A stretch of DNA of 41,641 nucleotides from Terriglobales bacterium (GCA_049589635.1 JBAWBE010000331.1:1-41641); one strand, 5' to 3'. Shown: positions 1-17,076, counted from the stretch's first letter. Translations and numbers: made by a program. Notes: generated by a model from the sequence alone, not told the origin.

Positions 1-75
1 GAGGAAGGCGAAGACGGCGAGCGCGTGGATCGTCAGCCAACGCGAGCCGTTGGTCGGTGGCGCGGAGCCGCTCAT
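1..75 (-). CDS. ABC transporter permease, N-terminal fragment (PotC-like second permease; continues past the window edge)
   Basis: ATG at 75-73 overlaps the TGA stop (74-72) of the upstream permease (ATGA overlap). The reverse-strand frame reads MSGSAPPTNGSRWLTIHALAVFAFL... and is open to position 1. It follows potA/potB-like genes. Confidence 0.6.
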   Translation of the reverse strand, partial: MSGSAPPTNGSRWLTIHALAVFAFL

Positions 76-920
76 GAGAAGCTCCATTTCCTTTCCAGCC
101 GCTCAGAAAAGAAAAGAAGGCCGACGACGATCAACAACATGCAGAACGAAATGGCCGCGCCCAGCGGCCAGTTGTAGGCCGCGCCGAACAGACTGACGAC
201 GATATTCGAAATCATGATGCCGCTGGGGCCGCCTAGGAGTAGGGGCGCGAGAAAATCTCCCAGGCTAAGCACGAAGGCGAAGGTCGCTCCTGCGAGCACT
301 CCTGGAATTGAAAGTGGAAATATTACCCGCCAGAAAGTTTGCGCAGGCGAGGCGCCGAGGTCGTGCGAGGCTTCGACTAGATTTCGTGGAACGTGCTCCA
401 GCGAGGCATAAATCGGCAGGAGGGTGAAGGGCGTGTAAATGTGAGTGAGCGTGAGCACAACCGCAAATGGACTGTAGAGCAGGAAATCAAGCGGGTGCTT
501 TGTGAGATGCGCATACTGCAAAAGTGTATTCAGGACGCCGTCGGTGCCGAGAATCGTCTTCCAGGCGTACGCGCGTACCAGATAGCTCACCCAAAGCGGA
601 ATGATGACGAGTTGGTAGAAGATATCTTTTCTTGCGCCTGCATGGAAGGAGAGGAAGTAGGCAAGCGGGTATCCGAGTAGGAGAGAAAAGAGCGTGACGC
701 GAGTCGCGATCCACATCGAGCGCAGCAGCGTTTGCCAGTAGACGGGTTTGATGAGGAGTTCGCGATAGTTGTCGAAGGTCCACGCGTGGATGATCGCCTG
801 CGACTCAGAGACCGACCAGAAGCTGTAGCAGAACATCAGCAGATACGGCACAAGCAAAAATACCGCAACCCACGTCAGCGGCGGCACGGTGATGGCGATG
901 CGGTAAGCGCGCGAGAACAT
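72..920 (-). CDS. potB: Spermidine/putrescine-type ABC transporter permease
   Basis: 282-aa polytopic membrane ORF with a BPD-transporter permease signature region (SLEHVPRNLVEASHDLGASPAQTFWRVIFPLSIPG). Its start overlaps the potA-like stop. Confidence 0.85.
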   Translation of the reverse strand: MFSRAYRIAITVPPLTWVAVFLLVPYLLMFCYSFWSVSESQAIIHAWTFDNYRELLIKPVYWQTLLRSMWIATRVTLFSLLLGYPLAYFLSFHAGARKDIFYQLVIIPLWVSYLVRAYAWKTILGTDGVLNTLLQYAHLTKHPLDFLLYSPFAVVLTLTHIYTPFTLLPIYASLEHVPRNLVEASHDLGASPAQTFWRVIFPLSIPGVLAGATFAFVLSLGDFLAPLLLGGPSGIMISNIVVSLFGAAYNWPLGAAISFCMLLIVVGLLFFSERLERKWSFS

Positions 921-2068
921 TAGACGCGATCCTCGGAGGGCCGGACGGGAATGGCATCTGCGGCGGAGAACTCAAACTCAAGATTTCTTGCGTCGTCGCT
1001 GGGTGGGCGAGATGAGATCCGCAACGTGAGGATCTGCCCGTCGGCGCACTCGACCCGCCAGAGTTCGTTTGCGCCGTGGAAGACCTGATCGCGCAGCTGC
1101 GCCTTGAAGCGGACGGTTGGACCGTGCGCTGTGGGAAGAGTCGTTGGAAGAGACCCCGATTTGCCGATTCCTACAAGACGAATGCACTCCGGACGTAAAG
1201 AGAAGAGCGCAGGGCCGTCGGGGAGAGAGGTGGGCCATTCGAGCGCGCCGGGATTTGTCTTAGTGACAGTTTTAGCAATGCCTGCGCGCACATCCGCTTT
1301 CAGAAGATTAGTGTGGCCGATAAACTGCGCGGTGTATGCAGTCGCGGGGCGGGAGTAGATTTCGCGCGGGCTGGCAACTTGCTCGAGCTCGCCGGAACGC
1401 AGTAGCGCGATGCGATCAGACATGACCATTGCCTCTTCTTGATCGTGCGTGACGAAGATGAAGGTGATGCCGACCTCGCGTTGCAAGGCCTTGAGCTCCA
1501 CCTGCATCTGCCGCCGCAGATTGGCGTCAAGCGCGGAGAGCGGTTCGTCGAGCAGCAACACGCGCGGACGATTTACGAGCGCGCGGGCGAGTGCAATGCG
1601 TTGCTGCTGGCCGCCACTGATCTTTGAGGGCTTCGCCTTCGCATAGGCAGACATCTTGACTTTGGCGAGTGCCTCCCTCACACGCGATTCGACTTCCGCC
1701 GCCGGGCGTTTTGCGATGCGCAGGCCGTAGCCAACGTTCTCCTCAACCGTCATGTGCGGAAAAAGAGCATAGCTCTGGAAAACAGTGTTTATAGGGCGCC
1801 GGTAAGGTGGCTGCACGTCGAGTTGCTCCCCCGCCATCCAGACTGCTCCGGATGTGGCCTGTTCGAACCCAGCAAGAATGCGAAGCAGCGTGGTTTTGCC
1901 CGAGCCGCTCTCGCCGAGAATGGTCAGGAATTCGCCTTCGGCAATTTCGAGGCTGATGTCGCGAAGGACGATATTCTTGCCGAAATGCTTGGCTACGGCG
2001 CGGAGCGAGAGAAGCGCAGTGCTTGGTGAACTGCCGATTGCGACCGCGGATTCCGTACTGGTTGCCAT
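920..2068 (-). CDS. potA: Spermidine/putrescine-type ABC transporter ATP-binding protein
   Basis: Walker A GESGSGKTT, ABC signature ISGGQQQRIALARAL, Walker B LLLDEPLSALD, H-loop FVTHDQ, and a C-terminal regulatory (TOBE-like) extension. 382 aa. Confidence 0.9.
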   Translation of the reverse strand: MATSTESAVAIGSSPSTALLSLRAVAKHFGKNIVLRDISLEIAEGEFLTILGESGSGKTTLLRILAGFEQATSGAVWMAGEQLDVQPPYRRPINTVFQSYALFPHMTVEENVGYGLRIAKRPAAEVESRVREALAKVKMSAYAKAKPSKISGGQQQRIALARALVNRPRVLLLDEPLSALDANLRRQMQVELKALQREVGITFIFVTHDQEEAMVMSDRIALLRSGELEQVASPREIYSRPATAYTAQFIGHTNLLKADVRAGIAKTVTKTNPGALEWPTSLPDGPALFSLRPECIRLVGIGKSGSLPTTLPTAHGPTVRFKAQLRDQVFHGANELWRVECADGQILTLRISSRPPSDDARNLEFEFSAADAIPVRPSEDRV

Positions 2069-2124
2069 GGCTATCGTTTTGTGGCGCCCGCATTTCGCGG
2101 GCGAGGGCGCCCGCGCTGCACAGG

Positions 2125-3192
2125 CTACTGCGCCGCTTTCACTTCATTCCAGACCTCGTTGTACTTGGCGCGACGCGGCACGTTCTGCCAGAAATAAAGA
2201 CGTTTCTGATAATTATCGACGTCGTCGAGGTGCAGACTTGTAACTTCTTCCGGCGTCATGTACTGCGCTGCATGTGGATTCGCCGGGGTGTAATGGGTGA
2301 TATCGGTGACGGACTTCTGCATCTTGGCCTCGATCATGTATTCCAGGAATTTGTACGCGAGTTCTTTGTTCTCGCTTCCGGCAGTGATCATCAAGTGGTC
2401 GATCCACCCGGTGGTGTTTTCCTTGGGAATGGTCTCGCCAACCGGAAAGTTTTTCTTCTTTAGCTCCACCGTGTTCAGTGGCCAGCCCATTGCGATCACG
2501 ATCTCGTGGTTCTGAAATAAATTCGTTAGCTCGCCGCCGGTTGACCAAATCTTGCGAATGTTAGGCTTCAACTCGATCAGCTTCTTCTTGACCGCGTCCA
2601 GTTCGTCGTCGCTCAGGTTATAAAGATGACCGGGATCGGGCTTGTCGTAGCCCAACACCTGAGCGGCCATGTAGACAGTCGAGAGATCGTCCCACACAGA
2701 AATTTTCTGTTGCAGCTTCGGATCCCACATCACATTCCAGCTATCGGGCGGCTGCGCGAACGCGGTTGTGTCGTAAATCATTGGGTCCGGGCCCCACATG
2801 AACGGCACGCCAAAAACATCGCCTTTTACGCGCACCAGCGGCAGGGAAGTGAGCTGCGGCGAAAGCTGGCTATAGCTCGGCAGTTTGCCAAGATCAAGCG
2901 GAGCGGCGAGGCCTGAAGTTGCGATCATGGTCGCAACGTCGCTCGAAGGAGAAATTACATCGTAAGTTCCCGCGCTCCCGCCGCGAAGCTTCGCGACCAG
3001 TTCGTCGCTCGATCCCATGTATGAAGCCGAAACTTTGCAGTGGTTCTGCTCCTCGAAAGCCTTGACGTAAGCAGGATCGGCGTAGCCTTCCCAGACGAGC
3101 AGGTTCAGGGTAGGCGTTTTTTTCGCGCACGATCCGCAGAACAACACGACCAAGGCCAGCAGCAGAACGAATGCGGTTCGTCGCAATGTCAT
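2125..3192 (-). CDS. potD: Polyamine (spermidine/putrescine) ABC transporter periplasmic substrate-binding protein, PotD/PotF family
   Basis: 355 aa. N-terminal signal peptide MTLRRTAFVLLLALVVLFCGSC. PotD/F-like motifs (LNLLVWEGYADP, YDVISPSSD). GGAGAA Shine-Dalgarno upstream. Sits directly upstream of potA/B. Confidence 0.85.
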   Translation of the reverse strand: MTLRRTAFVLLLALVVLFCGSCAKKTPTLNLLVWEGYADPAYVKAFEEQNHCKVSASYMGSSDELVAKLRGGSAGTYDVISPSSDVATMIATSGLAAPLDLGKLPSYSQLSPQLTSLPLVRVKGDVFGVPFMWGPDPMIYDTTAFAQPPDSWNVMWDPKLQQKISVWDDLSTVYMAAQVLGYDKPDPGHLYNLSDDELDAVKKKLIELKPNIRKIWSTGGELTNLFQNHEIVIAMGWPLNTVELKKKNFPVGETIPKENTTGWIDHLMITAGSENKELAYKFLEYMIEAKMQKSVTDITHYTPANPHAAQYMTPEEVTSLHLDDVDNYQKRLYFWQNVPRRAKYNEVWNEVKAAQ

Positions 3193-3250
3193 CTAGTTTC
3201 TCCAACTAGCGTTTTTTGAATCACGCAAATTCGTAACTCGGCCGCGTGCT

Positions 3251-4048
3251 TCAGAATGTAGGCGGCGTGTTCACCCACAACAGCCACGTCTCTCCGGGCC
3301 CTGGATTCGTCCAGCGATGCGGCGTGGCGCTTTCGAAATAAAAGCTGTCGCCGCGTTTTAAATCGTACTCTTCATCGGCGAGCGCGATCTTGAGTTCTCC
3401 CCGCAAAACAAAAAGAAACTCTTCGCCTTCATGCATGTAGGCTTCGCCGCTTCCCGCATGAGGCTTGATGCGAAAAAGATGTGGCTCCATCGCGGTATTT
3501 CCCCACGCGAGCAGTTCCATGCGCACTCCTGGTCCAGCCTCCAACACCTTGCGCCGCGCTGGACGCACCAGTCGCGGGTTGGCTTCGGCCGGATCGAAAA
3601 ACTCAAGAATGTTGGTGCGATAAAAGCGCGCGAGCCTGCGAAGCGTGCCGACCGAGGCGGTCATCTGCGAGCGTTCAATTGCACTCAGAAAGCCCACGGA
3701 AATTCCGGCGGCGATCGCAACGTCGGCAAGGTTTAAATCTCGCTTCCCGCGCATTTGGCGCAGGCGCGGCCCGATCCCGGCAGTCGGACCATTAGCGGAT
3801 GGTTTGATGGCACCTTCGCGCTTCAGCATTTCGACGATGGCCGCAGCGTTCAAGCCGCGCACCTTGCGCAGATAGCGCGCCTTCTTCAGCAAGCGCACAT
3901 CTTCATTTGTGTAGAGGCGATAGCGGCCCTGGCTGCGCTGCGGCCGCATGAGTCCTAGACTCTCCCAGCCGCGAATCGCCGAGGCCGAGATGCCGACGAG
4001 TCGCGCCACGTCGCCGATTTTGAGATAGTCTTGCGCTCCGCTCGACAT
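3251..4048 (-). CDS. Transcriptional regulator with three fused domains: MerR-type HTH, XRE-type HTH and C-terminal cupin (PuuR-like core with an extra MerR domain)
   Basis: N-terminus IGDVARLVGISASAIRGWESLGLMRPQRSQGRYRLYTNEDVRLL matches the MerR HTH pattern. Middle LRQMRGKRDLNLADVAIAAGISVGFLSAIERSQ matches XRE/HTH_3. C-terminus HEGEEFLFVLRGELKI...GDSFYFESATPHRWTN matches cupin_2. Confidence 0.85.
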   Translation of the reverse strand: MSSGAQDYLKIGDVARLVGISASAIRGWESLGLMRPQRSQGRYRLYTNEDVRLLKKARYLRKVRGLNAAAIVEMLKREGAIKPSANGPTAGIGPRLRQMRGKRDLNLADVAIAAGISVGFLSAIERSQMTASVGTLRRLARFYRTNILEFFDPAEANPRLVRPARRKVLEAGPGVRMELLAWGNTAMEPHLFRIKPHAGSGEAYMHEGEEFLFVLRGELKIALADEEYDLKRGDSFYFESATPHRWTNPGPGETWLLWVNTPPTF

Positions 4049-4092
4049 GAGTTCGAATGTGCCTGTTGACTGCGGTCCGGGAGCCGAGCTTT

Positions 4093-4128
4093 TTCGGAAA
4101 CTGCTTCCGAACTTTTTTCCGAACTTTT
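4093..4128. promoter_or_regulatory. Candidate operator repeats: TTCGGAA (4093-4099) inverted to TTCCGAA, followed by two perfect tandem 12-mers TTCCGAACTTTT (4105-4116, 4117-4128)
   Basis: Read directly from the divergent intergenic region between the regulator and the TonB receptor gene. Confidence 0.5.
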
Positions 4129-4132
4129 CCGC

Positions 4133-4161
4133 TTGACAGATGGCCGGAGAGTCTCTAACCT
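4133..4161 (+). promoter_or_regulatory. Candidate sigma70 promoter for the TonB-receptor operon: TTGACA (4133-4138), 17-nt spacer, TAACCT (4156-4161)
   Basis: Perfect -35 hexamer. The -10 keeps T1, A2 and T6. About 90 nt upstream of the ATG at 4254. Confidence 0.4.
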
Positions 4162-4181
4162 TGCGCGATTATAGCAAGGTT
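4157..4181. promoter_or_regulatory. Perfect 8-bp inverted repeat AACCTTGC-N9-GCAAGGTT, a candidate operator; the spacer reads TATAAT on the minus strand
   Basis: Arms at 4157-4164 and 4174-4181. It overlaps the plus-strand -10 and encloses a consensus minus-strand -10 (4173-4168), with TTGTGA (4195-4190) 16 nt upstream. Confidence 0.55.
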
Positions 4182-4253
4182 TGCGTTTCTCACAAGCTCC
4201 AAAAACGAGCGTGAAAATTTCGGATCTGCCCCCGAGATCTGGAGGATTTGTTT

Positions 4254-7200
4254 ATGCCGCAGTCGCGAGCGTTCCGGTTGACCCGTTGCCTGGCTGTCGT
4301 GTTTCTGGCTATCGCCTGCCTTTGCTTGATGTGTTCCACGCTGCTTGCACAGGGTACGGGAGGCCGCATCATCGGCCGCGTGGCCGACTCCAGCGGCGCA
4401 GTCCTGGCGAATGTGAAAGTGACGCTCGCCAACGAATCGACCGGGATCACGCGCGAGTCGCAGACCAACGGTAGCGGCGACTACGGCTTTCCGGAAGTTC
4501 CAGTCGGCACCTACACGTTGACCTTCGATCTGCAAGGCTTCAAGACGAGTGTGGGGAAGGCAATTACCGTCGAGCTGAACCAGATTGTTACGTTCAACTC
4601 CACCCTTCAGATCGGCGAGACTAAAGAGGTAGTTGAAGTCAGTTCAGAGGCGCCGCTGGTCGATACCACCAGCACGCAGCTTGGCGCTGTCATGGACAAT
4701 CGTCAGGTCCAGAACTTGCCGCTGAATTCTCGCGACACCTATCAGCTTCTACAACTGCAGCCGGGTGTGATGTCCACCGTCGGATCAAGCAACAGTCTCG
4801 TTTACGGAAGCGATAGCCCGGGCGCAGTCTCAGTGAACGGTGGCCGCGGTCGTTCCAACAACTTCAGCGTCAATGGTGGGGACGCCAACGATCTCTTCGC
4901 AAATTTGCCCACAGTGCAGCCGTCGCCGGACAGCATTCAGGAATTTCGCGTTATCACCAACACTTTCGACGCCGAGTATGGGCGCAACTCCGGCTCTGTC
5001 GTCAACGTGGTTACGAAGTCTGGTACCAACGACCTGCACGGAAGTCTTTACGAGTTTTTCCGCAACAAGGTACTTAACGCGAACGATTACTGCCTCACTG
5101 CTGCCTCGCCGGAAGATCTTCCTTGCTCGAAGCCACAATTTAATCAGAACCAGTTTGGTGGCACGCTGGGTGGCCCCATCATCAAGAACCGAACTTTCTT
5201 CTTCGCCAGTTATGAGGGCCGGCGTATTCGGCAGGGCATCCTCTCGCCAGCCGTGACTGTTCCCTCTGCTTCCGAGCGACCGAGTGCCACACAACCTTAT
5301 GCGGACTTCAGCGATATTGGTGGCTTTGATACTCAGAATCCGACTATGCAAACGGGACTCCTCAACAACCCGCAGCTGTTGGATAACCGGCCAGGGTGTG
5401 ACCAGGCAGTGGGCTATCCCGGCGGTATTCCCGCTGGTATTAAATACACCTCTTTATTTGCGAACAGCCAGATTCCGTTGGCTTGCCTGGATCCTACGGC
5501 CGTCGATCTTCTCCAATTTGTTCCGACACCACCGAATGGCGGGAGTTTGATCAGCACTGTGCCGACCGAGGCGGTACGTGGCGACAACTTCACGGCTAAA
5601 ATTGATCACCGCTTGAATGACAAGCAAAACCTGAGCATTTATTACTATTTCAACGATGATCGTACGAACAACCCATTTGCCACCTTCGAACTGGCCGGCG
5701 CCGACCTCCCTGGTTTCGGAGGCATAACGGCGGAGCGTTTCCAGCAGTACAACATTGCGCATACCTGGACAATCAATAACACCACCGTCAACGAGTTCCG
5801 TTTTAACTACAATCGTGAAGGCCAGGAAACCTTCCTGCACCCCGCCAACACCGAACTCGTGCAGAATTCCTGCCCGCCGCCTCCTTCATGGCTTACGGCT
5901 ACCGTGCCCTGTTTTTATGGCGACGGATCCACGGATTCCAACGGTAGCCTTTATGGCATTCATCCGGGCCTGAACGCGAGCCGCGAAGGTTTGCCGTTCA
6001 TCGCGATTTCGGGAGGGTTTTCGATTGGCAACAACTGGGAAGGTGAGCTTCCACAGGCAGGGAACTCTTTCCAGTGGTCGGATAGTTTGTCTAAGATATC
6101 GGGAAACCACACCTTCAAATTTGGAGCGGACGTTCGCCGGCAGCAGTTTAATCAATTTTATTACTTCAACATAAACGGCGAGTTCACCTACTTCGGCGGT
6201 GGACCGAACGATACCAATGCGGCCAATCTTTTCCCAAATTACCTTTTGGGTCTTCCGGATACGTTCGGCGAAGGTTCGCCGCAAAATGAAGAGATTCGCA
6301 ACACCGGACTCTATTTGTACGCCCAAGACAGCTGGAAGATCAGGCCGAATCTTACCTTGAACTATGGTTTCCGATGGGAATTGAATACGCCGCTCGCGGA
6401 CAGGGCCCAGCATGTACAGACTTTCCGGCCTGGCCAATCGTCTACGATCTACCCTTGCGGAGGTCCCAATACCGATTGCACGTCACAGGATGCGATCGGG
6501 TTGGTCGTGCCCGGAGATTCCGGTGTGCCCGCCGGTCTGACCACAACCTATTACAAGGCCTTCGCTCCCCGCATCGGAATTGCCTGGAGTCCCGGCACCT
6601 CCGGCAAAACCAGCATTCGCGCGGGATGGGGACTTTTTTATAACCCGATCGAGCAGCTTGTGCTCGCGCAGTTTGGTGCCGAGCCGCCGTTTGGAGGAAG
6701 CAGCGTCGTCTCCGAGACGCAATTCAATCTTCCCTTTGCGGGTCAGGACTACAACACAGCCACGCAAATGGGTACCACCTACCTCAACCCGTTTAACGGA
6801 GTTCTGAACGCGCCGCGGGGTAACGCTCAGGATTGGGCGAGATTCGAGCCGATCATTCTCTACGGAGATTTTCAGCCGCATCTGCGGGCGCAGTATTCCG
6901 CGCAGTACAACCTTGGATTCGAGCGCCAGTTAACGCCAGACATGAAATTGTCGGTCGGTTACGTGGGATCGCAAGGGCATCGCTTGCTGGCGACGCATGA
7001 CGTCAATTACTCGAATCCGCAAACATGTCTCGATATCGGCAACATTGCGGCTGCAAATCCCGCATACGTCACCGACGGCTTCGGCGATCAGGTAACATGC
7101 GGGCAGTTTACCGAGGATGCTCCTTTCATCATCACCCCCGGAACAGTCCTGCCCGTGGATTTGCACCTTCCTTATGCCCAGAACAGCTCTGTGATTCCAG

Positions 7201-8069
7201 CGGGAACCACAGTCGGTGCAAACGGAATTACTCTCGTCGGTTTGCGGCCGTACTCCTCGCCGCAATGCGACCCGATGACCGGTTCCGGTTGTCCCACCGC
7301 CACCGGCGTTCCGGTCTTCACCAGCGTCTTCGCCCAGGACACGATCGCCAGCTCCGCCTACAATTCCCTACAAGCTTCGTTGGATAAGCGCTTCGCTCAC
7401 GGACTCCAATTCACTGCAGCTTATACTTACAGCAAATCCATCGACGAGGCCTCCAGCTTCGAAGGGATACTCAATCCTCTGCCGGGCGCAAATAACTTCG
7501 CTCGCTCGCTGTTTGACGCGCGCCACCGCTTCGTTATCAGTTATTTCTGGGATCTGCCCATCAGAAAATACAGCGGTTTTGCCGGGAAATTACTGAATGA
7601 TTGGGCCGTTTCTGGTATCACAACCTATCAGACGGGATTTCCGATTCGAATCACTTCGTCGTCGGACAACGAGTTGATGAACAGCTTCGACTTCGAATTG
7701 CCGGGTGAGCCGAACCAAGTTGCGCCATTTCACTGGCAAAGACCGCAAAGCAACGGGAACTACTACTTCAACAACCCTACCAATCAGGATGGGATTTTCA
7801 CGGAGTCAGGCGTGTTCGGTTACGTAGGAAGTGCTCCGCGCACGATTTGTTGCGGGCCCGGGATCAGCGATACCGATTTCGTTGTTATGAAGAACATTGC
7901 CGTCAACGAGCGCACCCATTTTGAATTTCGCGGAGAGGTGTTTAACATCTTTAACCATACGCAGTTCTTTAATCCGGACGGCAACAGCACCGACGGAGCG
8001 CAATTTGGCCAGGTGACGGAGGTCAAGGATCCGCGGCTGTTACAATTTGCTTTGAAGTTTTACTTCTGA
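4254..8069 (+). CDS. TonB-dependent outer-membrane receptor with N-terminal carboxypeptidase-regulatory-like domain (Oar-like)
   Basis: Signal peptide. GRIIGRVADSSGAVLANVKVTLANESTGITRESQTNGSGDYGFPEVPVGTYTLTF is CarboxypepD_reg-like. Plug-like region (LPLNSRDTYQLLQLQPGV). Long beta-rich barrel ending in an aromatic C-terminus ...LKFYF. GGAGGA lies 8 nt before the ATG at 4254 (the track starts at TTG 4248). Confidence 0.9.
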   Translation: MPQSRAFRLTRCLAVVFLAIACLCLMCSTLLAQGTGGRIIGRVADSSGAVLANVKVTLANESTGITRESQTNGSGDYGFPEVPVGTYTLTFDLQGFKTSVGKAITVELNQIVTFNSTLQIGETKEVVEVSSEAPLVDTTSTQLGAVMDNRQVQNLPLNSRDTYQLLQLQPGVMSTVGSSNSLVYGSDSPGAVSVNGGRGRSNNFSVNGGDANDLFANLPTVQPSPDSIQEFRVITNTFDAEYGRNSGSVVNVVTKSGTNDLHGSLYEFFRNKVLNANDYCLTAASPEDLPCSKPQFNQNQFGGTLGGPIIKNRTFFFASYEGRRIRQGILSPAVTVPSASERPSATQPYADFSDIGGFDTQNPTMQTGLLNNPQLLDNRPGCDQAVGYPGGIPAGIKYTSLFANSQIPLACLDPTAVDLLQFVPTPPNGGSLISTVPTEAVRGDNFTAKIDHRLNDKQNLSIYYYFNDDRTNNPFATFELAGADLPGFGGITAERFQQYNIAHTWTINNTTVNEFRFNYNREGQETFLHPANTELVQNSCPPPPSWLTATVPCFYGDGSTDSNGSLYGIHPGLNASREGLPFIAISGGFSIGNNWEGELPQAGNSFQWSDSLSKISGNHTFKFGADVRRQQFNQFYYFNINGEFTYFGGGPNDTNAANLFPNYLLGLPDTFGEGSPQNEEIRNTGLYLYAQDSWKIRPNLTLNYGFRWELNTPLADRAQHVQTFRPGQSSTIYPCGGPNTDCTSQDAIGLVVPGDSGVPAGLTTTYYKAFAPRIGIAWSPGTSGKTSIRAGWGLFYNPIEQLVLAQFGAEPPFGGSSVVSETQFNLPFAGQDYNTATQMGTTYLNPFNGVLNAPRGNAQDWARFEPIILYGDFQPHLRAQYSAQYNLGFERQLTPDMKLSVGYVGSQGHRLLATHDVNYSNPQTCLDIGNIAAANPAYVTDGFGDQVTCGQFTEDAPFIITPGTVLPVDLHLPYAQNSSVIPAGTTVGANGITLVGLRPYSSPQCDPMTGSGCPTATGVPVFTSVFAQDTIASSAYNSLQASLDKRFAHGLQFTAAYTYSKSIDEASSFEGILNPLPGANNFARSLFDARHRFVISYFWDLPIRKYSGFAGKLLNDWAVSGITTYQTGFPIRITSSSDNELMNSFDFELPGEPNQVAPFHWQRPQSNGNYYFNNPTNQDGIFTESGVFGYVGSAPRTICCGPGISDTDFVVMKNIAVNERTHFEFRGEVFNIFNHTQFFNPDGNSTDGAQFGQVTEVKDPRLLQFALKFYF

Positions 8070-8081
8070 TTTTGTCCGAAA

Positions 8082-8104
8082 CCGGGCGGTTACGGCCGCC
8101 CCGG
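8082..8104 (+). other. GC-rich hairpin downstream of the receptor gene, without a U-tract
   Basis: GGGCGG (8084-8089), loop TTACGG, CCGCCC (8096-8101), plus 2 more pairs after a bulge. No T-run follows, so it is not a canonical intrinsic terminator. Confidence 0.3.
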
Positions 8105-8161
8105 CCCAATCTAATGGCCCATCCTCTAGCGGATCCGGCCTGAGCATTTTTGGAGATCACG

Positions 8162-9541
8162 ATGTATCCCGCACTAGAGAAGGAGCTCGCGACGTTCGAG
8201 CGCCGCACGCCCAAGTCCGCCGAAGCTCACAAGAAGAATCTGAAACGCATTCCGCTCGGGGTCGCCAGCAACTATCGCGCCTATGATCCATATCCCATCT
8301 TTGTGCAGGAAGGCAAAGGTGGCCGATTCCGCGATCTGGATGGCAACGAATACATCGATCACAATCTATGTTTCGGAGCGCTGATGGCGGGGCACTGCCA
8401 TCCCGCAGTCATGAAGGCGGTCGAGAAGCGCCTCTCGACGGGCACAATGTTTGGCATGCCCCACAACATGGAGTGGGAGCTGGCGGAAGAAATCTGCACG
8501 CGCTTCCCAGTCGAGATGTGCCGCTTCGGCAACAGCGGCACGGAAGTGACCATGCACACCATTCGCCTCGCGCGCGCGGCGACTGGACGCGACAAGATCA
8601 TCAAATTCGAAGGCGGTTATCACGGCTTGCACGATGCCGCGCTGGTGAGCGTGAAGCCGCATCCGCCGGCCGACGACTTCGGGGACATCAAGAATCCCAA
8701 GCCCGTTTCCGGCGGCAAGGGCGTGCCCGCAGCAAGCATCGATAACGTGAAGATCGCAACCTTTAACGATCTCGAAACAGTCGAGCGCCGCTTCCGCGAG
8801 AATCCTGACCAGATCGCGGCCATCATTCTCGAACCGATCATGATGAATGTCGGCCTCTGCATGCCGCAGAAAGGATTTCTCGAAGGCCTGCGCGAGCTCT
8901 GCGACAAGCACGGCGCGCTGCTGATCTTCGACGAAGTGAAGACGGGAGCAAAACTTGGTTGGTCTGGCGCGTCGGAGTATTTCGGCGTGACGCCCGACAT
9001 GATCTGCCTGGCGAAATCGATCGGCGGCGGATTCCCGCTAGCCGCCTTCGGGGCGCACAAGCGCGTCATGCAACTTATCTCCGACCACAAAGTGTTTCAC
9101 GGCGGCACTTACAATACGAACCCCGTTTCGATGGCCGCAGGCCTCGCAGTATTCCGCGAAGTGTTGACGCGCGATAATTATGCGCACACCGACAAACTGA
9201 GCCACAAATTGACCGAAGGCTACCGGAGGATCGTCGCCAAATCCGGTCTGCAAGCTTACATCGCGAGCGCCGGCGTGAATGGCGCGCTGATGTTGTATCC
9301 GGCAGAGATCAAAAACTATCGCGACTGGCTGGCGATCGACATCGACCTGTGGCGCCATTACTGGTTTGCGATGGTCAATCGCGGAGTGATGCCGCAACCG
9401 TATTGGTGGGATGAGCAGTGGACGATTTCGGTGCAGCACACGGAAGCCGACATCGACCAGCACCTCGCAACATTCGCGGACATTGCCGATTCGCTGGCCG
9501 CGGCACAGCACGAGCGGATAGGAGCTGTCGCAACGCACTAG
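8162..9541 (+). CDS. Class-III (PLP) aminotransferase, glutamate-1-semialdehyde aminomutase-like subfamily
   Basis: Fold-type I class III motifs: GNSGTEVTMHTIRLAR, LIFDEVKTG, and the PLP-lysine context ICLAKSIGGGFPLAAFG. GGAG lies 6 nt upstream of the ATG at 8162 (the track starts at TTG 8150). Confidence 0.85.
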   Translation: MYPALEKELATFERRTPKSAEAHKKNLKRIPLGVASNYRAYDPYPIFVQEGKGGRFRDLDGNEYIDHNLCFGALMAGHCHPAVMKAVEKRLSTGTMFGMPHNMEWELAEEICTRFPVEMCRFGNSGTEVTMHTIRLARAATGRDKIIKFEGGYHGLHDAALVSVKPHPPADDFGDIKNPKPVSGGKGVPAASIDNVKIATFNDLETVERRFRENPDQIAAIILEPIMMNVGLCMPQKGFLEGLRELCDKHGALLIFDEVKTGAKLGWSGASEYFGVTPDMICLAKSIGGGFPLAAFGAHKRVMQLISDHKVFHGGTYNTNPVSMAAGLAVFREVLTRDNYAHTDKLSHKLTEGYRRIVAKSGLQAYIASAGVNGALMLYPAEIKNYRDWLAIDIDLWRHYWFAMVNRGVMPQPYWWDEQWTISVQHTEADIDQHLATFADIADSLAAAQHERIGAVATH

Positions 9542-9544
9542 AAC

Positions 9545-9650
9545 CGATCGGGTCTTCGTGCCATCTGGCCATCGGATCATCGGGTGATCGAACGACCCAA
9601 GTCCGATCGAATTAGATGGCACGATAACCCAATCACCCGATGACCCGATG
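9545..9650 (+). promoter_or_regulatory. Structured leader with interleaved perfect complementarities that sequester the permease start codon (candidate translational switch or pseudoknot)
   Basis: A 9556-9566 pairs with A' 9614-9624 (11 bp). B 9577-9588 pairs with B' 9632-9643 (12 bp), extended by 9570-9575 pairing with 9645-9650, which includes the ATG at 9648-9650. P0: 9545-9554 pairs with 9594-9598 plus 9605-9609. Confidence 0.55.
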
Positions 9651-11069
9651 ACTTCTGATCCCAACCAGCCGCACCTGAAGCGCGTTCTCGGACGCTTCGA
9701 CTTGGTGTTGCTGTTCGTAGTCGCAGTATTCAATCTGAACGTCATTCCCTCGATCGCAGCCAACGGCGGCGTAACAGTCTGGCTGTGGCTGATCGCCCTG
9801 TTGCTTTTTTTCTGGCCGCAGGGAATCGCAGTCATTGAGCTCGCGCACCGTTATCCGGGCGAAGGTGGCGTCTACCTCTGGGCGAAAGAAGTCTTTGGCG
9901 ACTTTCACGGCTTCCTTTCCGGATGGTGCTATTGGACCAACAACATGCTCTACGTGCCGACGGTGATGCTCTACTTCGTCGGCGTCTCGGTATTTGCGCT
10001 GGGACCTGGCCACGCTGCACTCGCTGACAACAAGGCCTTTGCGATGATCGCATCATTTGCGCTGCTCACTTTGCTCACAGCGCTGAACATCGTCGGCCTC
10101 GGAGTTGGCAAATGGCTCAACAATCTTGGAGCCATTGGAACCTTCGTAGCCGCCGCAGTTTTGATCGGCCTCGGAATCACCATCTGGTCGCGATTCGGCA
10201 CATCGGTAACGGCGGCCGACCTGCGAATCCCCGCCGATCCCAAGTTTGTTCTGAATTCCTTCGGCGTGATCTGCTTTGGCCTGGTTGGACTGGAATTGGC
10301 GTCGGTGATGGGCGACGAAATCCGCAATCCCCAGGAGACGCTGCCCGGCGCGGTCGCATGGGGAGGCGTGATTTCTGGCGCGCTCTATATCGGAGCGACA
10401 TTAACGCTCCTTATCGCCATCGGTAAAAACGACATCAGTGTCTTGCAAGGGATTGTGCAAGGCGTCAGCCAGATGGCCGGCAAAGTCGGGATGGCATGGA
10501 TCGTCGCTCCCTTTGCGGTCATGCTCAGTTTCTCAATCGCCGGAATTGGCTCGGCGTGGATAGGCGGTTCGGCTCGCATTCCATTTGTGGCCGGGCTCGA
10601 TTCCTACATGCCGGCGGCAATGGGAAAGGTTCATCCTAAGTACTCGACACCGCACGTTGCCTTGATTGTGCAGGGGATCGTCTCTCTGATCCTGATCGTG
10701 CTGAATTTCACTCTTTCAGGCGGCGTCCAGGAAGCGTTTCAGAAGATGCTGTCTGCCGCGGTGGTGCTGCAACTCATCCCCTTTCTGTATGTCTTTGCGG
10801 CGTTGCTGAGGTTTGCCTGGCGCGGATCAGTTGGTGGACGCTACAGCCGAACCACCTTGGCACTCTCCGGCGCGGCTGGCCTAATAACCACGATACTTGG
10901 CATCATCGTGGCGTTCTTCCCCGCCAAGCAAATCACTTCGATCTGGAAGTATGAAGCAACCATGTTTGGAATAACGCTCGGATTCATCGCGCTCGCGGTA
11001 TTTTTCTTTTATGGATACAGCCACCTGAAAACACCGGATGCGAAAATCGTAGGTGGCGAAGCACTTTAG
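9648..11069 (+). CDS. APC-superfamily amino acid/polyamine permease
   Basis: 473 aa, about 12 hydrophobic helices, with APC-type N-terminal motifs (LKRVLGRFDLVLLFVVAVFN..., GEGGVYLWAKEVFG). Confidence 0.85.
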   Translation: MTSDPNQPHLKRVLGRFDLVLLFVVAVFNLNVIPSIAANGGVTVWLWLIALLLFFWPQGIAVIELAHRYPGEGGVYLWAKEVFGDFHGFLSGWCYWTNNMLYVPTVMLYFVGVSVFALGPGHAALADNKAFAMIASFALLTLLTALNIVGLGVGKWLNNLGAIGTFVAAAVLIGLGITIWSRFGTSVTAADLRIPADPKFVLNSFGVICFGLVGLELASVMGDEIRNPQETLPGAVAWGGVISGALYIGATLTLLIAIGKNDISVLQGIVQGVSQMAGKVGMAWIVAPFAVMLSFSIAGIGSAWIGGSARIPFVAGLDSYMPAAMGKVHPKYSTPHVALIVQGIVSLILIVLNFTLSGGVQEAFQKMLSAAVVLQLIPFLYVFAALLRFAWRGSVGGRYSRTTLALSGAAGLITTILGIIVAFFPAKQITSIWKYEATMFGITLGFIALAVFFFYGYSHLKTPDAKIVGGEAL

Positions 11070-11088
11070 CTGACGCAGGAGATAGTCT

Positions 11089-12573
11089 ATGCCCGGTGGA
11101 GTACAGACCGACGTCAAGACATACCAGATGTTTATCGACGGCCAATGGGTCGCCAGCAAAACGAACAAGACTTTTCCAGTCTACGATCCGTCGACGGAAG
11201 AAGTAATTGCACAGGTTCCTGACGCCAATGCCGAAGATGTAGACCGCGCAGTAGCTGCAGCCCGCGCGGCATTTGACGAGGGTCCATGGGCTGCCTCGAC
11301 AGCGCAAGAGCGCGGCCGCGTTCTCTTCCGTCTAGCTGAAAAAGTTCGTCAGAATCTGCCCGCGCTCGCTGAACTGGAATGCCGCAACACCGGCAAGCCC
11401 ATCGTCGAAGCCGAGTTTGACATCAACGATGTGGCGACGTGCTTCGAATACTACGGCGGCCTCGCGACGAAGGTCGTCGGCTACGTAAATCCTGTGCCCG
11501 ACAATGCGATGAGCCTCACGCTCAAAGAGCCCGTCGGAGTGGCCGGACAAATCGTTCCCTGGAATTATCCGTTGCTCATGGCAGCGTGGAAGCTGGCTCC
11601 GGCATTGGCCGCCGGGTGCACCTGCATTTTGAAGCCAGCCGAGCAAACTCCGCTCACCGCGCTGGAGTTGGCAAAGTGGTTTGACGAAGTCGGATTGCCA
11701 AAGGGCGTAGTGAACGTGATCACTGGCTTTGGCGAGACCTGTGGCTCGCCGCTGGTGAAGCATCCCGACGTGAATAAGATTGCCTTCACCGGCTCAGCGA
11801 GTGTCGGCAAGATCATCGTGAAAGAAGCGGCAGACACGGTGAAACGCGTGACGCTTGAACTCGGTGGCAAGTCCCCGAACATTTTCTTTGCCGACGCCGA
11901 CTTCGAAGCCGCCATCGACGGTGCGCTCTTCGGTGTGTTCATTAATCAGGGTGAAGTTTGCTCGGCGGGCAGCCGCATTCTGGTACAGAAATCGATTTAT
12001 AAGAAGTTCGTCGACGCGATGGCTGAAAAGGCCAAGAAGATCAAACTCGGCCCGCCGCTCGATCGCGAAACGAAAATGGGCGCGCTGGTCAGCAAGGAGC
12101 AGTATGACCGCGTGCTTTCCTACGTCGATATCGGCAAGAAGGAAGCGAAAGTTGCATCCGGCGGTGGACGCGCCGAGAAATTCGCCAAGGGCTATTACGT
12201 GCAGCCGACTATCTTCTATGACGTCGATAACAGCGCCCGCATTGCGCGCGAAGAAGTCTTCGGCCCGGTGGCCGCGGTCATCCCATTCGACGACGAAAAA
12301 GACGCGATGAAGATTGCCAACGATTCCCCGTATGGCTTGGCCGCAGCCGTCTGGACGCGCGACATTTTCAAAGCCATGCGAACGGTGAAGTCTCTGCGAG
12401 CAGGCATAGTGTGGGTCAATCATATGCAACCGACCTACGTGGAAGCCCCGTGGGGAGGCTACAAGCAATCTGGCTTTGGACGCGAACTCGGGCCCTGGGG
12501 TATCGAGGAATATCTGGAAACAAAGCAGGTATACATCAATTTGAACGAAGCGCCGATCGGTTGGTACCGATAA
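11089..12573 (+). CDS. NAD(P)-dependent aldehyde dehydrogenase (aminobutyraldehyde/betaine-aldehyde dehydrogenase-like)
   Basis: ALDH motifs: catalytic Glu in LELGGKSP, catalytic Cys in GEVCSAGSR, and FTGSASVGK. AGGAG Shine-Dalgarno upstream. 494 aa. Confidence 0.9.
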   Translation: MPGGVQTDVKTYQMFIDGQWVASKTNKTFPVYDPSTEEVIAQVPDANAEDVDRAVAAARAAFDEGPWAASTAQERGRVLFRLAEKVRQNLPALAELECRNTGKPIVEAEFDINDVATCFEYYGGLATKVVGYVNPVPDNAMSLTLKEPVGVAGQIVPWNYPLLMAAWKLAPALAAGCTCILKPAEQTPLTALELAKWFDEVGLPKGVVNVITGFGETCGSPLVKHPDVNKIAFTGSASVGKIIVKEAADTVKRVTLELGGKSPNIFFADADFEAAIDGALFGVFINQGEVCSAGSRILVQKSIYKKFVDAMAEKAKKIKLGPPLDRETKMGALVSKEQYDRVLSYVDIGKKEAKVASGGGRAEKFAKGYYVQPTIFYDVDNSARIAREEVFGPVAAVIPFDDEKDAMKIANDSPYGLAAAVWTRDIFKAMRTVKSLRAGIVWVNHMQPTYVEAPWGGYKQSGFGRELGPWGIEEYLETKQVYINLNEAPIGWYR

Positions 12574-12594
12574 CTGAAAACTGAAGACTGAGAC
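12574..12594. repeat. Three tandem heptamers ACTGAAA-ACTGAAG-ACTGAGA in the ALDH-gabT spacer
   Basis: Read directly, immediately after the TAA stop at 12571-12573. Confidence 0.7.
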
Positions 12595-12599
12595 CTAGT

Positions 12600-13964
12600 A
12601 TGTCGACTATCCAACTCCGCACTCCGATTCCCGGGCCGCGCTCGCAAGCACTGATGAAACGTCGCGATGCCGCGGTTGTAAGGGCTGCTTATCATGCAAC
12701 GCCCGTCTTCGTCGCGAAGGCTGAGGGCGCGGTCATCGAAGATGTCGACGGCAATCGGATGATTGACTTCGCCGGCGGAATCGGCTGCGTTAACACAGGA
12801 CATCGCGCGCCAGCGGTCGTCGATGCTGTGCGCCGTCAACTGGATCGTTTTCTGCATACCAGCTTTAACGTGCTTCCTTATGAGAGCTACATAGCGGTCT
12901 GCGAAAAGCTGAATGCGATTGCGCCGGGGAAAGGTCCGAAGAAGACTCTGCTCGTCAGCACCGGCGCAGAGGCGACGGAAAACGCGGTCAAGATTGCGCG
13001 CGCCTATACACGCAGGCCCGCAATCATCGCCTTTGAAGACGCCTTCCACGGACGTACGTACATGGCGATGGCCATGACCAGCAAAACGCATCCCTACAAG
13101 GCCGGCTTCGAACCGTTTCCAAGTGATGTTTATCGCATTCCGTATGCCTATTGCTATCGCTGCTCGTATTCGCTGAAATATCCGTCGTGCGAGGTGTTTT
13201 GTGCGAAGCACATCGAAGATACGTTTAAACGCGTGGTCGCCGCTGAGAGCGTTGCTGCCGTGATCGTTGAGCCGATTCTTGGTGAAGGTGGATTTGTTAC
13301 GCCTCCATCAGAATTCTTTCCGACCCTAACGGAAATCTGCCGCAAGTACGGAATCCTGGTGATCGCCGATGAAGTCCAGACGGGATTCGCGCGCACGGGC
13401 GCAATGTTCGCGTGCGAGCGGTTGGGACTCGATCCGGATATTGTCACCATGGCGAAGTCACTCACCGGAGGCTTGCCAATGGCCGCAGTCACGGGCCGCG
13501 CCGACATCATGGATGTTTCCGCCGCCGGCCAATTAGGCGGAACATTCGGCGGCAATCCATTGGCCTGCGAAGCGGCGCTGGCCGTGCTTGAGACGATTGA
13601 GAAAGAGAATCTGTGCGCGCGGGCGAATGTACTGGGTGATCGCTTCCGCAAACGCGCCGCGAAATGGCAAGCCAAGTGGGAATTGATCGGCGATGTTCGT
13701 GGTCTCGGTGCGATGCAGGCTCTAGAACTGGTTCGTTCGAAAGCAACTCGCGAGCCTGCAGACGAGGAGACAAAACAGGTGTCGCAATATTGCTACGAGC
13801 ACGGTCTCGTGTTAATCACCGCTGGCTCGTACGGCAACGTGATACGTTTGCTCATGCCGCTCGTCGTGACCGACGCGCAAATGGAGGAAGCGATGGATGT
13901 GCTCGAATCTGCCTTGGCGGCTGTGACGGAAAAGAAGCCGACATTGAGCGTTCAGTCTGTTTAG
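12600..13964 (+). CDS. gabT: 4-aminobutyrate:2-oxoglutarate aminotransferase-like class-III aminotransferase
   Basis: 454 aa. GabT-like N-terminus (PIPGPRSQALMKRRDAAV) and IADEVQTGFARTG. The PLP-lysine context IVTMAKSLTGGLPMAAV resembles E. coli GabT. Confidence 0.8.
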   Translation: MSTIQLRTPIPGPRSQALMKRRDAAVVRAAYHATPVFVAKAEGAVIEDVDGNRMIDFAGGIGCVNTGHRAPAVVDAVRRQLDRFLHTSFNVLPYESYIAVCEKLNAIAPGKGPKKTLLVSTGAEATENAVKIARAYTRRPAIIAFEDAFHGRTYMAMAMTSKTHPYKAGFEPFPSDVYRIPYAYCYRCSYSLKYPSCEVFCAKHIEDTFKRVVAAESVAAVIVEPILGEGGFVTPPSEFFPTLTEICRKYGILVIADEVQTGFARTGAMFACERLGLDPDIVTMAKSLTGGLPMAAVTGRADIMDVSAAGQLGGTFGGNPLACEAALAVLETIEKENLCARANVLGDRFRKRAAKWQAKWELIGDVRGLGAMQALELVRSKATREPADEETKQVSQYCYEHGLVLITAGSYGNVIRLLMPLVVTDAQMEEAMDVLESALAAVTEKKPTLSVQSV

Positions 13965-14032
13965 ATTGCGATTCTTGCAGTTCTCTGTGACTCTGTGGTG
14001 AAACGATTTTCAAAAACGAAAACGAGGATTCG

Positions 14033-15370
14033 ATGACCACCGCGACCGAAACTCCCACGATGACCGGCAAAGAAATCATTGACCTGACTAAAAAGCACAC
14101 GCTCTACGAGTGGTCGGCGCAGTCGAAGGTCGATCCGATTCCTGTTGCGCGTGCAAAGGGAATTTATTTCTGGACGCCGGAAGGGAAGCGCTTTATCGAC
14201 TTCAACAGTCAGTTGATGTCCGTCAACATTGGACACGGCGATGAGCGCGTGATTCAGGCGATTGCCGACCAGGCTGCGACGCTTTGTTATGCGAATCCTT
14301 TCATGGCGACCGAAGTGCGCGCTCGGCTTGGCCAAAAGCTGGCGGAGATTACTCCCGGCGACATCGACACATTTTTCTTTACGAATGGTGGCGCTGAGGC
14401 AAATGAAAACGCCATCAAGCTTGCCCGATTCTTTACTGGGCGCCATAAAATCATTGCGCGCTATCGTTCGTACCACGGTGCAACGGCGGGCGCGATCTCG
14501 CTGACCGGCGATCCTCGGCGCTGGGCTGCTGAGCCCGGCATTCCGGGTGTCGTGCGCGTGCTCGACCCTTATCACGGCATCGAGCGCGGATGGGAATCGG
14601 CCGAATCGTCCCTGGCGATGATTGAAGAGACGATTCAGCTCGAAGGCCCGCAGACGATTGCCGCGTTCATTTTGGAGACCGTCACCGGAACGAACGGCAT
14701 TCTGATTCCGCCTGATGGGTATATGCAAGGCGTGCGCAAACTGTGCGACAAATACGGAATCCTGATGATTGCCGACGAAGTCATGGCCGGTTTTGGACGC
14801 ACGGGCGAATGGTTTGCAGTCGATCACTGGAAAGTTGTTCCCGATCTTATTTGCATGGCAAAGGGGCTGACGTCGAGTTACATTGCACTGGGCGCGGTCG
14901 GCATGCGTCATCACATCGCGCAACATTTTCAGGACAAGGTGTTTTATGGCGGACTGACTTATAACTCCCATCCGATGGGATGCGCGACCGCGCTCGCGAC
15001 CATTCGCGTGTACGAAGAAGACAACCTGATCGAGAATTCGCGAAACATGGGCGCGATCATGAAAGATCTTGGAGCCGACCTTCAGAAGAAACATCGCTCC
15101 GTCGGCGCGGTTCGATCGATCGGATTATTCGGAATCTTCGAGCTGGTCCGCAGCCAAAAGACGCGCCAGCCCATGGCTCTGTTCAATGGGACATCCGACG
15201 AGATGGTCGCGCTCGGAAAATTCTTCCGCGAGAACGGGCTCTATACACTGGTGCGATGGAATACGTTCTATACGAATCCTCCGCTGTGCATTAATGAGCA
15301 GCAGCTGCGCGAGGCGTTCGCAATCATCGATAAGGGGCTGGAGATCACTGATAAGGCTGTAGTGGACTAG
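14033..15370 (+). CDS. Class-III omega-amine:pyruvate-type aminotransferase (putrescine/beta-alanine/taurine-pyruvate aminotransferase-like)
   Basis: 445 aa. Motifs: FTNGGAEANENAIKLAR, IADEVMAGFGRTG, and the PLP-lysine context LICMAKGLTSSYIALGAV. Confidence 0.8.
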   Translation: MTTATETPTMTGKEIIDLTKKHTLYEWSAQSKVDPIPVARAKGIYFWTPEGKRFIDFNSQLMSVNIGHGDERVIQAIADQAATLCYANPFMATEVRARLGQKLAEITPGDIDTFFFTNGGAEANENAIKLARFFTGRHKIIARYRSYHGATAGAISLTGDPRRWAAEPGIPGVVRVLDPYHGIERGWESAESSLAMIEETIQLEGPQTIAAFILETVTGTNGILIPPDGYMQGVRKLCDKYGILMIADEVMAGFGRTGEWFAVDHWKVVPDLICMAKGLTSSYIALGAVGMRHHIAQHFQDKVFYGGLTYNSHPMGCATALATIRVYEEDNLIENSRNMGAIMKDLGADLQKKHRSVGAVRSIGLFGIFELVRSQKTRQPMALFNGTSDEMVALGKFFRENGLYTLVRWNTFYTNPPLCINEQQLREAFAIIDKGLEITDKAVVD

Positions 15371-15373
15371 TTG

Positions 15374-15395
15374 CTACCTCTTCGGTAGTTATTTT
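15374..15395 (+). terminator. Weak intrinsic terminator candidate after the last aminotransferase gene
   Basis: CTACC, loop TCTTC, GGTAG, followed by TTATTTT. The stem is only 5 bp. Confidence 0.3.
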
Positions 15396-15530
15396 CGGCC
15401 GCCGACCGCGGCTTCCGCGAGATCGCGCAGACTCATCAGCTTGCTCTTTGGTCTGTAGCCAAGACCGGAGTTAGCCCCTCTAACCCTATGGCCCGGGTCT
15501 ATTGGAATCATGACTTTACGGAGTTGTGCC

Positions 15531-15649
15531 GCAAAGTCTTGAACCAAAGTTACTTAGAAGCAAAGTATTGAGTACGTGGGAGTTAGCGGCCAAAATCACG
15601 CATTTCTTGCGGGTATTGATTCTGGATAGTGTAATTTGCAAAGTCTTGA
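15531..15649. repeat. Three copies of GCAAAGT(C/A)TTGA (15531-15542, 15560-15571, 15638-15649) in an AT-richer noncoding gap
   Basis: Two copies are identical 12-mers and the third matches 11 of 12. Read directly. Confidence 0.6.
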
Positions 15650-15931: not shown

Positions 15932-15970
15932 CCTGTTCGAGCGCGGGTCTCAATCCCCAGGAGAATTCCT

Positions 15971-17026: not shown

Positions 17027-17076
17027 GTGAGAATCCTTTCGGCCTCCACGCCCTTGGCACGGCGGCGCTACAAATC

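Follow-up and report, generated by a model that had tools for sequence, protein, structure and literature searches.

A conserved Terriglobales locus links an Oar-type TonB-dependent receptor gene to a putative transaminase pathway for short amines

The window analyzed here, a stretch of 41,641 nucleotides from a Terriglobales bacterium (GCA_049589635.1 JBAWBE010000331.1:1-41641), represents an entire contig. The metagenome-assembled genome (MAG) to which it belongs has 5.84 Mb on 784 contigs, with 97% completeness and 5.9% contamination. The first 15,370 positions of the window are occupied by two divergent gene units (Table 1). The minus-strand unit encodes a regulator and the components of a polyamine-type ATP-binding cassette (ABC) importer, while the plus-strand unit encodes a large Oar-type TonB-dependent outer-membrane receptor followed by a class III aminotransferase (AT1), an APC-family permease, an aldehyde dehydrogenase (ALDH), the 4-aminobutyrate aminotransferase GabT, and a further omega-amine aminotransferase (AT3). 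A preliminary description of this DNA, made from the sequence alone, had named these genes and proposed that the receptor belongs to an amine-catabolic operon. An open reading frame (ORF) listing with Pfam and NCBIfam profile scans of the window ORFs recovered the named genes in their places and with the families assigned to them, and comparison with related genomes showed that the receptor genuinely belongs to the locus: Synteny is kept, and a second receptor subfamily is recurrently linked to the same enzymes.

Table 1. Genes and sequence elements of the receptor-aminotransferase locus, in order of position. Promoter and terminator calls are from a consensus scan; bit scores are given with the model cut-off where there is one.
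Feature	Position	Strand	Basis or remarks
PotC-like second ABC permease, start only	1..87 (87..1)	-	first 29 codons; runs off contig end
PotB-like ABC permease	72..920	-	BPD_transp_1; best NCBIfam match PotB 205 bits, below cut-off 348
PotA-like ABC ATPase	920..2068	-	ABC_tran; TIGR01187 polyamine ATPase subfamily 349.5 bits, just below cut-off 355.6
Periplasmic binding protein, YdcS/PotF/PotD group	2125..3192	-	SBP_bac_8; best PDB matches 6nlp, PotF, PotD, SpuD, SpuE
Three-domain regulator with PuuR-like core, first gene of ABC operon	3251..4048	-	Pfam MerR_1, HTH_3, Cupin_2
Shared control region	4133..4195	.	sequence and promoter scan
Predicted promoter TTGACA-N17-TAACCT	4133-4161	+	promoter scan
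Perfect operator-like dyad, 8-nt arms, 9-nt spacer	4157-4181	.	sequence
Predicted promoter TTGTGA-N16-TATAAT	4195-4168	-	promoter scan
Oar-type TonB-dependent transporter, 1271 aa	4254..8069 (ORF 4248-8069)	+	PF13620 and PF25183
Conserved spacer element	8082..8144	+	orthologue comparison
GC-rich hairpin without U tract	8082-8104	+	
Near-invariant 12-mer	8108-8119	+	
Second hairpin, length variable among orthologues	8116-8140	+	
TGAG	8141-8144	+	
Shine-Dalgarno sequence of AT1	8152-8155	+	
AT1, class III aminotransferase, glutamate-1-semialdehyde (GSA) aminomutase-like (HemL/GntE-like) clade	8162..9541	+	hemL model 372 bits, cut-off 527
APC-family permease, distantly GadC-like	9648..11069	+	AA_permease_2 165 bits; GadC models 152 and 133 bits, far under cut-offs
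ALDH, aminoaldehyde/betaine-aldehyde-type, NAD(P)	11089..12573	+	Aldedh 612 bits
GabT, 4-aminobutyrate:2-oxoglutarate aminotransferase	12600..13964	+	TIGR00700 576 bits, above cut-off 506.65
AT3, omega-amine aminotransferase, PRK06062 subfamily	14033..15370	+	NF004718 525 bits, above cut-off 472
Terminator-like hairpin with T-rich tail, directly 3' of last gene	15373..15389	+	consensus scan

The genome of the window encodes about 45 Oar-type receptors in 5.8 Mb, so that one adjacency of such a gene to a set of enzymes means little on its own. A scan of 185,579 species genomes yielded 232 relatives of the receptor, and AT1 lies directly 3' of the receptor gene in every sufficiently long locus among the best 80 of these 232. 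All compared genomes are MAGs; the record titles of the relatives name uncultured Terriglobales, Acidobacteriaceae, or "Candidatus Sulfotelmatobacter" (one is labelled Verrucomicrobiia), and the isolate names of many of these records indicate peat, bog, fen, palsa, or soil. Within the genus, a receptor orthologue with 53-81% identity is present in all 24 sampled genomes, and the order of regulator, receptor, AT1, APC permease, ALDH, GabT, and AT3 is kept in 19 of the 20 loci that were fetched. The same order as far as GabT recurs in all 5 loci compared from outside the genus, which represent three further genera of the family and a second family of the class. Taken together, about 100 genomes of Terriglobales relatives retain the cluster order wherever the locus is long enough, and the regulator gene adjoins the receptor gene in 97 of 106 loci. 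One variant locus (L036, in genome G017) combines a regulator of 51% identity with two tandem Oar-type receptor genes, a GabT-like gene (61%), and a different ALDH (38%), and AT1 and the APC permease are absent from it.

Farther away, a phylum-wide sample of 15 AT1 loci across Acidobacteriota includes distant members in which AT1 is 51-55% identical and the core of AT1, APC permease, and ALDH persists. At three of these loci (L047, L048, and L050), a different Oar-type receptor of 923 aa is encoded downstream of that core. It is about 29% identical to the window receptor over the N-terminus, which is lower than the identity of some paralogues within the genome of the window. Two further families (L052 and L053) have a receptor that is 36-37% identical to this 923-aa type and is encoded divergently from an AT1 homologue; there, the APC-ALDH core is missing and other enzymes are present. 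Across the phylum, a receptor gene adjoins AT1 in 10 of 15 loci and in three arrangements. The linkage between receptor and enzymes is thus more than chance, and a role of the receptor in the pathway is supported most strongly by the repeated association of non-orthologous receptors with AT1. The L052 locus itself represents a different receptor-linked amino-compound locus, with a 46%-identical AT1 homologue next to an M28/PA/TFR-type peptidase, another class III aminotransferase, and a thiolase on one side, and the receptor, an SSF symporter, and an amidohydrolase on the divergent side.

The receptor gene likely starts with the ATG at 4254, which is preceded by GGAGG, and its product has the layout of a signal peptide, a CarboxypepD_reg extension, a TonB-box-like motif, a plug-like region, and a barrel. 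The extension is matched by PF13620 at residues 41-121 (68 bits, cut-off 32.3), the barrel family OMP_b-brl_4 (PF25183) reaches 640 bits over model positions 1-838 and thus the whole model, and residues 126-132 form a TonB-box-like motif that a set of 40 orthologues conserves. The plug domain PF07715 is a weak match, with 19.3 bits under a cut-off of 23.9 and 94 of 107 model positions covered, and searching PDB sequences with a receptor profile gave no match. An AlphaFold2 model of residues 125-1273 built with 40 orthologues is poor (mean pLDDT 55.5, with the plug region unresolved at about 23) and usable for fold class and strand count only. It contains 22 strands of at least 7 residues with alternating long and short connections, and TonB-dependent transporters make up all of the top 50 listed among 202 Foldseek matches at E <= 0.001 (best E 6e-14), at TM scores of just 0.33/0.44 due to the poor model. 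The charge of the receptor was considered as a clue to a cationic substrate and discarded: in a comparison covering isoelectric point (pI) as well as acidic and aromatic content, the receptor with its pI of 4.96 is not an outlier from 26 same-genome paralogues, which mostly range from 4.9 to 5.5.

Relative to the closest related locus, L039, AT1 of the window is 97% and the ALDH 94% identical, and the receptor just 60%. By region, identity of the two receptors falls from 78% in the extension and plug to 66% in the strands and 32-45% in the long predicted loops. The position of the receptor is thus retained even when the receptor gene is swapped, and this loop-centered divergence at a fixed position suggests diversifying selection or allele exchange, as is common for proteins exposed at the cell surface. 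When L029 and L038 are included in the comparison, the receptor alleles are mosaic, with enzymes that are 94-98% and receptors that are 58-64% identical, and the differences lie in long predicted surface loops such as residues 327-443, 918-1026, and 1129-1205.

The regulator and receptor genes are separated by a divergent spacer of 205 nt with a predicted promoter for each unit and an operator-like dyad between them. The left arm of the dyad overlaps the plus-strand -10 box and its spacer contains the minus-strand -10 box TATAAT, so that a single regulator site can control both units. Both arms are perfect in 71 of 73 orthologous spacers, and the dyad has a single occurrence in its own genome and is found again in the distant-genus locus L045; we therefore regard it as a putative operator that can serve the two divergent units. 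Repeats of TTCGGAA/TTCCGAACTTTT at 4093-4128 were rejected as a second operator, being found in 0 of 72 orthologous spacers. According to promoter scan and dyad conservation, the lone promoter-like, operator-bearing site of the receptor unit sits upstream of the receptor gene, and the scan finds no promoter-like site in the spacer between receptor and AT1.

This second spacer holds a conserved element that is present in 69 to 71 of 73 orthologous spacers and occurs once in its own genome. Its first hairpin shows compensatory changes in 3 of 5 core pairs and had been taken for a possible terminator that might uncouple the receptor gene from the enzymes. However, no U tract follows this hairpin in any orthologue and it is part of the larger conserved element, so that a classical intrinsic terminator is unlikely. 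An Rfam search of positions 3900-16000 returned nothing relevant and thus no match for the element, and the most distant genera are without it and have other hairpins at that place. A sigma-54 reading of the TGGCC...GGCC motif was ruled out because its spacing differs between orthologues. The conserved element could act as a locus-specific processing, stability, or attenuation signal within one transcript, and most likely the receptor gene is transcribed together with the enzymes from the single regulated promoter. Intergenic gaps in the plus-strand unit measure 92, 106, 19, 26, and 68 nt; the 106-nt gap (9542-9647) precedes the APC permease gene in an otherwise tight operon.

The start of AT1 is likely at 8162, where it was placed because the homologues are 459 aa long. 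Public records widely label these homologues "glutamate-1-semialdehyde 2,1-aminomutase", and we rejected this identity for AT1 given its score under the hemL cut-off and a true hemL that is a separate gene on contig C613 (626 bits). The solved relatives of AT1 are GSA aminomutases, and the same clade holds true transaminases, namely beta-transaminases, ForI, and D-phenylglycine aminotransferase. The ALDH is a family-level match to several models, with scores and cut-offs of 581/669 bits for betaine-aldehyde dehydrogenase (BADH), 523/615 for the aminobutyraldehyde dehydrogenase subfamily NF010000, and 400/909 for TIGR03374. In the PDB, it matches bacterial BADH and plant aminoaldehyde dehydrogenases best, and KauB/PauC is matched with 423 bits. 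AT3 has the taurine:2-oxoglutarate aminotransferase 6jix as its best solved relative (E 3e-106), followed by amine, putrescine, and polyamine:pyruvate transaminases. In pairwise comparison, the three aminotransferases AT1, GabT, and AT3 share about 31% identity, and against the PatA equivalog NF008570 (cut-off 612 bits) AT1 scores 146 and AT3 218 bits. No PuuA- or PuuD-like ORF is present in positions 1-15370, where every long ORF falls in another family, and the enzyme set fits a transaminase route rather than the gamma-glutamylation (Puu) route, as proposed before. Aminophosphonate, taurine, and betaine pathways were considered as well and rejected, since their signature genes (PhnA/PhnX, Xsc, and choline dehydrogenase) are not in the ORF set.

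Most related loci carry one enzyme gene more than the window. In 48 of 63 of them (76%), a CoA-acylating (methyl)malonate-semialdehyde dehydrogenase (MMSDH) is encoded between GabT and the last aminotransferase (TIGR01722, 568 bits in L041, cut-off 448), and the window copy belongs to the minority that lacks it (15 of 63). An MMSDH beside an omega-aminotransferase points to a beta-alanine (C3) branch and implies that 1,3-diaminopropane or an aminopropyl moiety would be converted via 3-aminopropanal, beta-alanine, and malonate semialdehyde to acetyl-CoA. Each step of this branch is documented in other systems (PMC9213253, PMC12006823). In the C4 branch from putrescine via 4-aminobutanal and GABA to succinate semialdehyde, no gene is assigned to the last step. 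A 4-kb contig of the same MAG (C35, L136:1-3976) carries GabT, MMSDH, and AT3 from a second cluster copy that is 92-96% identical to the version of another genus, and either the organism has two copies or this contig is a contaminant introduced by binning. Two full cluster copies (L029 and L033) are found in genome G023.

Of the PotD-A-B-C-type importer named in the preliminary description, the binding protein, the ATPase, and a PotB-like permease are present, but the PotC-like permease is cut to 29 codons by the contig end. What remains of its frame matches the N-terminal part of the second permease encoded 3' of potB in the related locus L041, and many relatives have such a permease, 27-30% identical to PotB, at this place. 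The best matches of the importer subunits are all polyamine systems, every one of them under its equivalog or subfamily cut-off (for the binding protein in NCBIfam, YdcS 131/725 bits and PotF 104/636 bits). Motifs W-x-x-Y, W-D-D, and W-x-D of the binding protein align with W-x-x-Y, L-D-D, and W-x-D of a PotF variant, aromatic and acidic positions that we take to form the PotF ligand pocket. The regulator does lie between the two units, as had been described, but it shares its strand with the ABC genes, of which it is the first, and is divergent from the receptor operon. It is a fusion of a MerR-type helix-turn-helix (HTH) to a PuuR-like XRE-HTH and a cupin domain, in a three-domain form that is kept across related loci, and its PuuR equivalog score of 69 bits is below the cut-off of 211. 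Despite the two HTH domains, one conserved operator type is found in the control region.

Based on these comparisons, it seems likely, if far from certain, that the locus constitutes one regulon by which uncultured peat and soil Terriglobales scavenge and degrade short di- and polyamines and their omega-amino-acid products via a transaminase route. The PuuR-like three-domain regulator would sit on the single dyad over both -10 boxes until an amine or its product lifts the repression of both units. The amine would then cross the outer membrane via the Oar-type TonB-dependent transporter and the inner membrane via the YdcS/Pot-type ABC system and the APC permease. AT1 as the proposed entry transaminase, and/or AT3, would turn the terminal amine into an amino-aldehyde, the ALDH would oxidize this to an omega-amino acid (GABA or beta-alanine), and GabT or AT3 would convert the latter to a semialdehyde. 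In most relatives, the CoA-acylating MMSDH, of which the window copy has no gene, would close the C3 branch to acetyl-CoA, and the spacer element would serve as a processing, stability, or attenuation signal instead of a full terminator. More tentatively, and with somewhat less than even confidence, we propose in full that Terriglobales take up free short di-/polyamines or omega-amino acids by TonB-energized transport across the outer membrane, using one operator-controlled regulon with two inner-membrane importers, a C3/C4 transaminase pathway, and a spacer RNA that sets the ratio of receptor to enzymes. The data are also consistent with a substrate range wider than putrescine, as suggested earlier.

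Several observations weigh against assigning short di- and polyamines to this regulon. Small amines are generally assumed to pass outer membranes via porins, and our literature searches found no published TonB-dependent transporter for free polyamines. The plug domain of the receptor is weakly detected and its structure model is poor. Among the enzymes, equivalog or subfamily cut-offs are reached only by GabT, by AT3 for its subfamily, and by the MMSDH of the relatives, and neither a putrescine aminotransferase nor a PatD equivalog is found. The ALDH matches phenylacetaldehyde dehydrogenase with 556 bits, nearly equal to its BADH score, and the nearest solved relative of AT3 acts on taurine. 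Finally, the preliminary description had seen no dedicated succinate-semialdehyde dehydrogenase in the locus, and indeed none scores above the cut-off of TIGR01780 (646 bits) in the locus or in the whole 97%-complete MAG, the best being the cluster ALDH with 425 bits; this gap is now explained differently, by the MMSDH that relatives carry.

Two other assignments of the substrate deserve consideration, each of which we regard as unlikely. In one of them, the receptor takes up a larger molecule that bears amines, for example a polyamine conjugate, a fragment of an amino-polymer, or a long-chain polyamine, and the enzymes degrade the amines released from it. TonB-dependent transport classically serves molecules that are too big or too scarce for porins, and the receptor is very large with best fold matches that include FusA and YddB (ferredoxin receptor and outer-membrane transporter by their PDB titles), which carry large substrates. 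Three uptake devices and three aminotransferases in one locus would also fit such cargo. However, Oar-type receptors of this genome are all of this size, and about 100 loci share no conserved amidase, peptidase, hydrolase, or amine oxidase, which leaves the conjugate or amino-polymer substrate of the preliminary description without support from gene content. A gene of the flavin amine-oxidoreductase family (17077-18618) does lie downstream of the cluster together with an ABM monooxygenase gene (16577-18618 for both, minus strand), but we rejected this pair as the polyamine oxidase of the system, since the closest relative, L039, is the only other locus with a match, in a comparison where most fetched loci barely extend that far downstream.

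Likewise improbable is a locus dedicated to omega- or beta-amino acids (GABA, beta-alanine, or 5-aminovalerate) or to monoamines instead of di- and polyamines. Such substrates would agree with GabT and MMSDH being the only enzymes with equivalog- or subfamily-level calls, with the distant similarity of the APC permease to GadC and TyrP, and with the score of the ALDH against phenylacetaldehyde dehydrogenase. Yet an aminoaldehyde-type ALDH with a co-conserved entry aminotransferase would be superfluous for amino acids alone, GabT, MMSDH, and AT3 are not required for monoamines, and the grouping of the binding protein with PotF, PotD, SpuD, and YdcS and the PuuR-like core of the regulator point to polyamines. 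Least probable is a receptor gene that is an unrelated, separately transcribed neighbor or has an export role like that of Oar for PopC in Myxococcus, given that random adjacency among about 45 such receptors per genome, the conserved GC hairpin 3' of the gene, and the requirement of Oar for protein secretion (PMC6434023) are set against a position kept in about 100 genomes even with an allele at 60% identity beside enzymes at 94-97%, a second receptor subfamily that accompanies this core of enzymes in different arrangements, a sole regulated promoter upstream of the receptor, and no secreted-protein gene in the cluster.

If the proposed uptake of short amines is correct, it would extend the substrate range of TonB-dependent transporters to small organic cations as a new substrate class and would help to explain nitrogen scavenging by slow-growing Acidobacteria in acidic, nutrient-poor peat. 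Our literature searches found neither a description of this cluster nor an outer-membrane component in descriptions of polyamine or amine uptake. For one among the dozens of uncharacterized Oar-type receptors per acidobacterial genome, the locus provides a function that can be tested. It also corrects the common misannotation of AT1 homologues as HemL, and its simple operator-regulator pair and conserved spacer element lend themselves to study.

The chemistry proposed for this locus has well-known counterparts. PatA-PatD-GabT-GabD and PuuR are established in polyamine utilization, and a review of the field does not contain the phrase "outer membrane" and thus names no outer-membrane component (PMC9397018). 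Likewise, the conversion of diaminopropane via 3-aminopropanal to beta-alanine is known (PMC9213253), and PauC oxidizes both 3-aminopropanal and 4-aminobutanal (PMC12006823). The E. coli pathway of PatA/YgjG, PatD/YdcW, GabT, and GabD with the ydcSTUV transporter shares with the Terriglobales locus the succession of a class III aminotransferase, an aminoaldehyde-type dehydrogenase, and GabT (PMC9397018), as well as a YdcS-like binding protein, Pot-type ABC parts, and the absence of gamma-glutamylation enzymes. In contrast to E. coli, the putative entry enzyme AT1 is of the GSA-aminomutase-like clade and no PatA orthologue (146 bits vs 612), GabD is missing from the locus and relatives have MMSDH instead, and all genes probably form a single regulon that also includes a TonB-type transporter of the outer membrane and an APC permease.

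BauA and BauC have their roles in the beta-alanine pathway of P. aeruginosa, and the MMSDH-AT3 pair of the Terriglobales relatives resembles bauC-bauA. The P. aeruginosa system of SpuC, PauC/KauB, and bauRABCD similarly combines an omega-amine aminotransferase with a broad aminoaldehyde dehydrogenase (PMC12006823) and leads from beta-alanine via malonate semialdehyde to acetyl-CoA with an MMSDH-type enzyme. Unlike in P. aeruginosa, the Terriglobales locus is without gamma-glutamylpolyamine synthetases and spermidine dehydrogenase, its regulator is a PuuR-like fusion and not of the LysR type, and a TonB-dependent receptor is present. Neither the E. coli nor the Pseudomonas system is copied orthologously, as the equivalog tests for PatA, PatD, and GabD all fail.

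The receptor resembles Oar of Myxococcus xanthus in its CarboxypepD_reg extension and large barrel, and probably in its TonB box and plug (PMC6434023). This relation is one of architecture only: The protease PopC depends on Oar for its secretion, whereas the Terriglobales receptor is encoded in a putative catabolic regulon with importers. In SusC-type loci of Bacteroidota and in the TonB-receptor carbohydrate loci of Xanthomonas and Caulobacter, a receptor is combined with inner-membrane transporters, a dedicated regulator, and catabolic enzymes for one nutrient class. The Terriglobales locus is a real, conserved, and in the literature found not previously described variant of such receptor-linked nutrient-utilization loci. 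It differs from those for glycans in having no SusD-like lipoprotein and no hydrolase, in its receptor of the Oar subclass, and in its enzymes, which are probably for amines.

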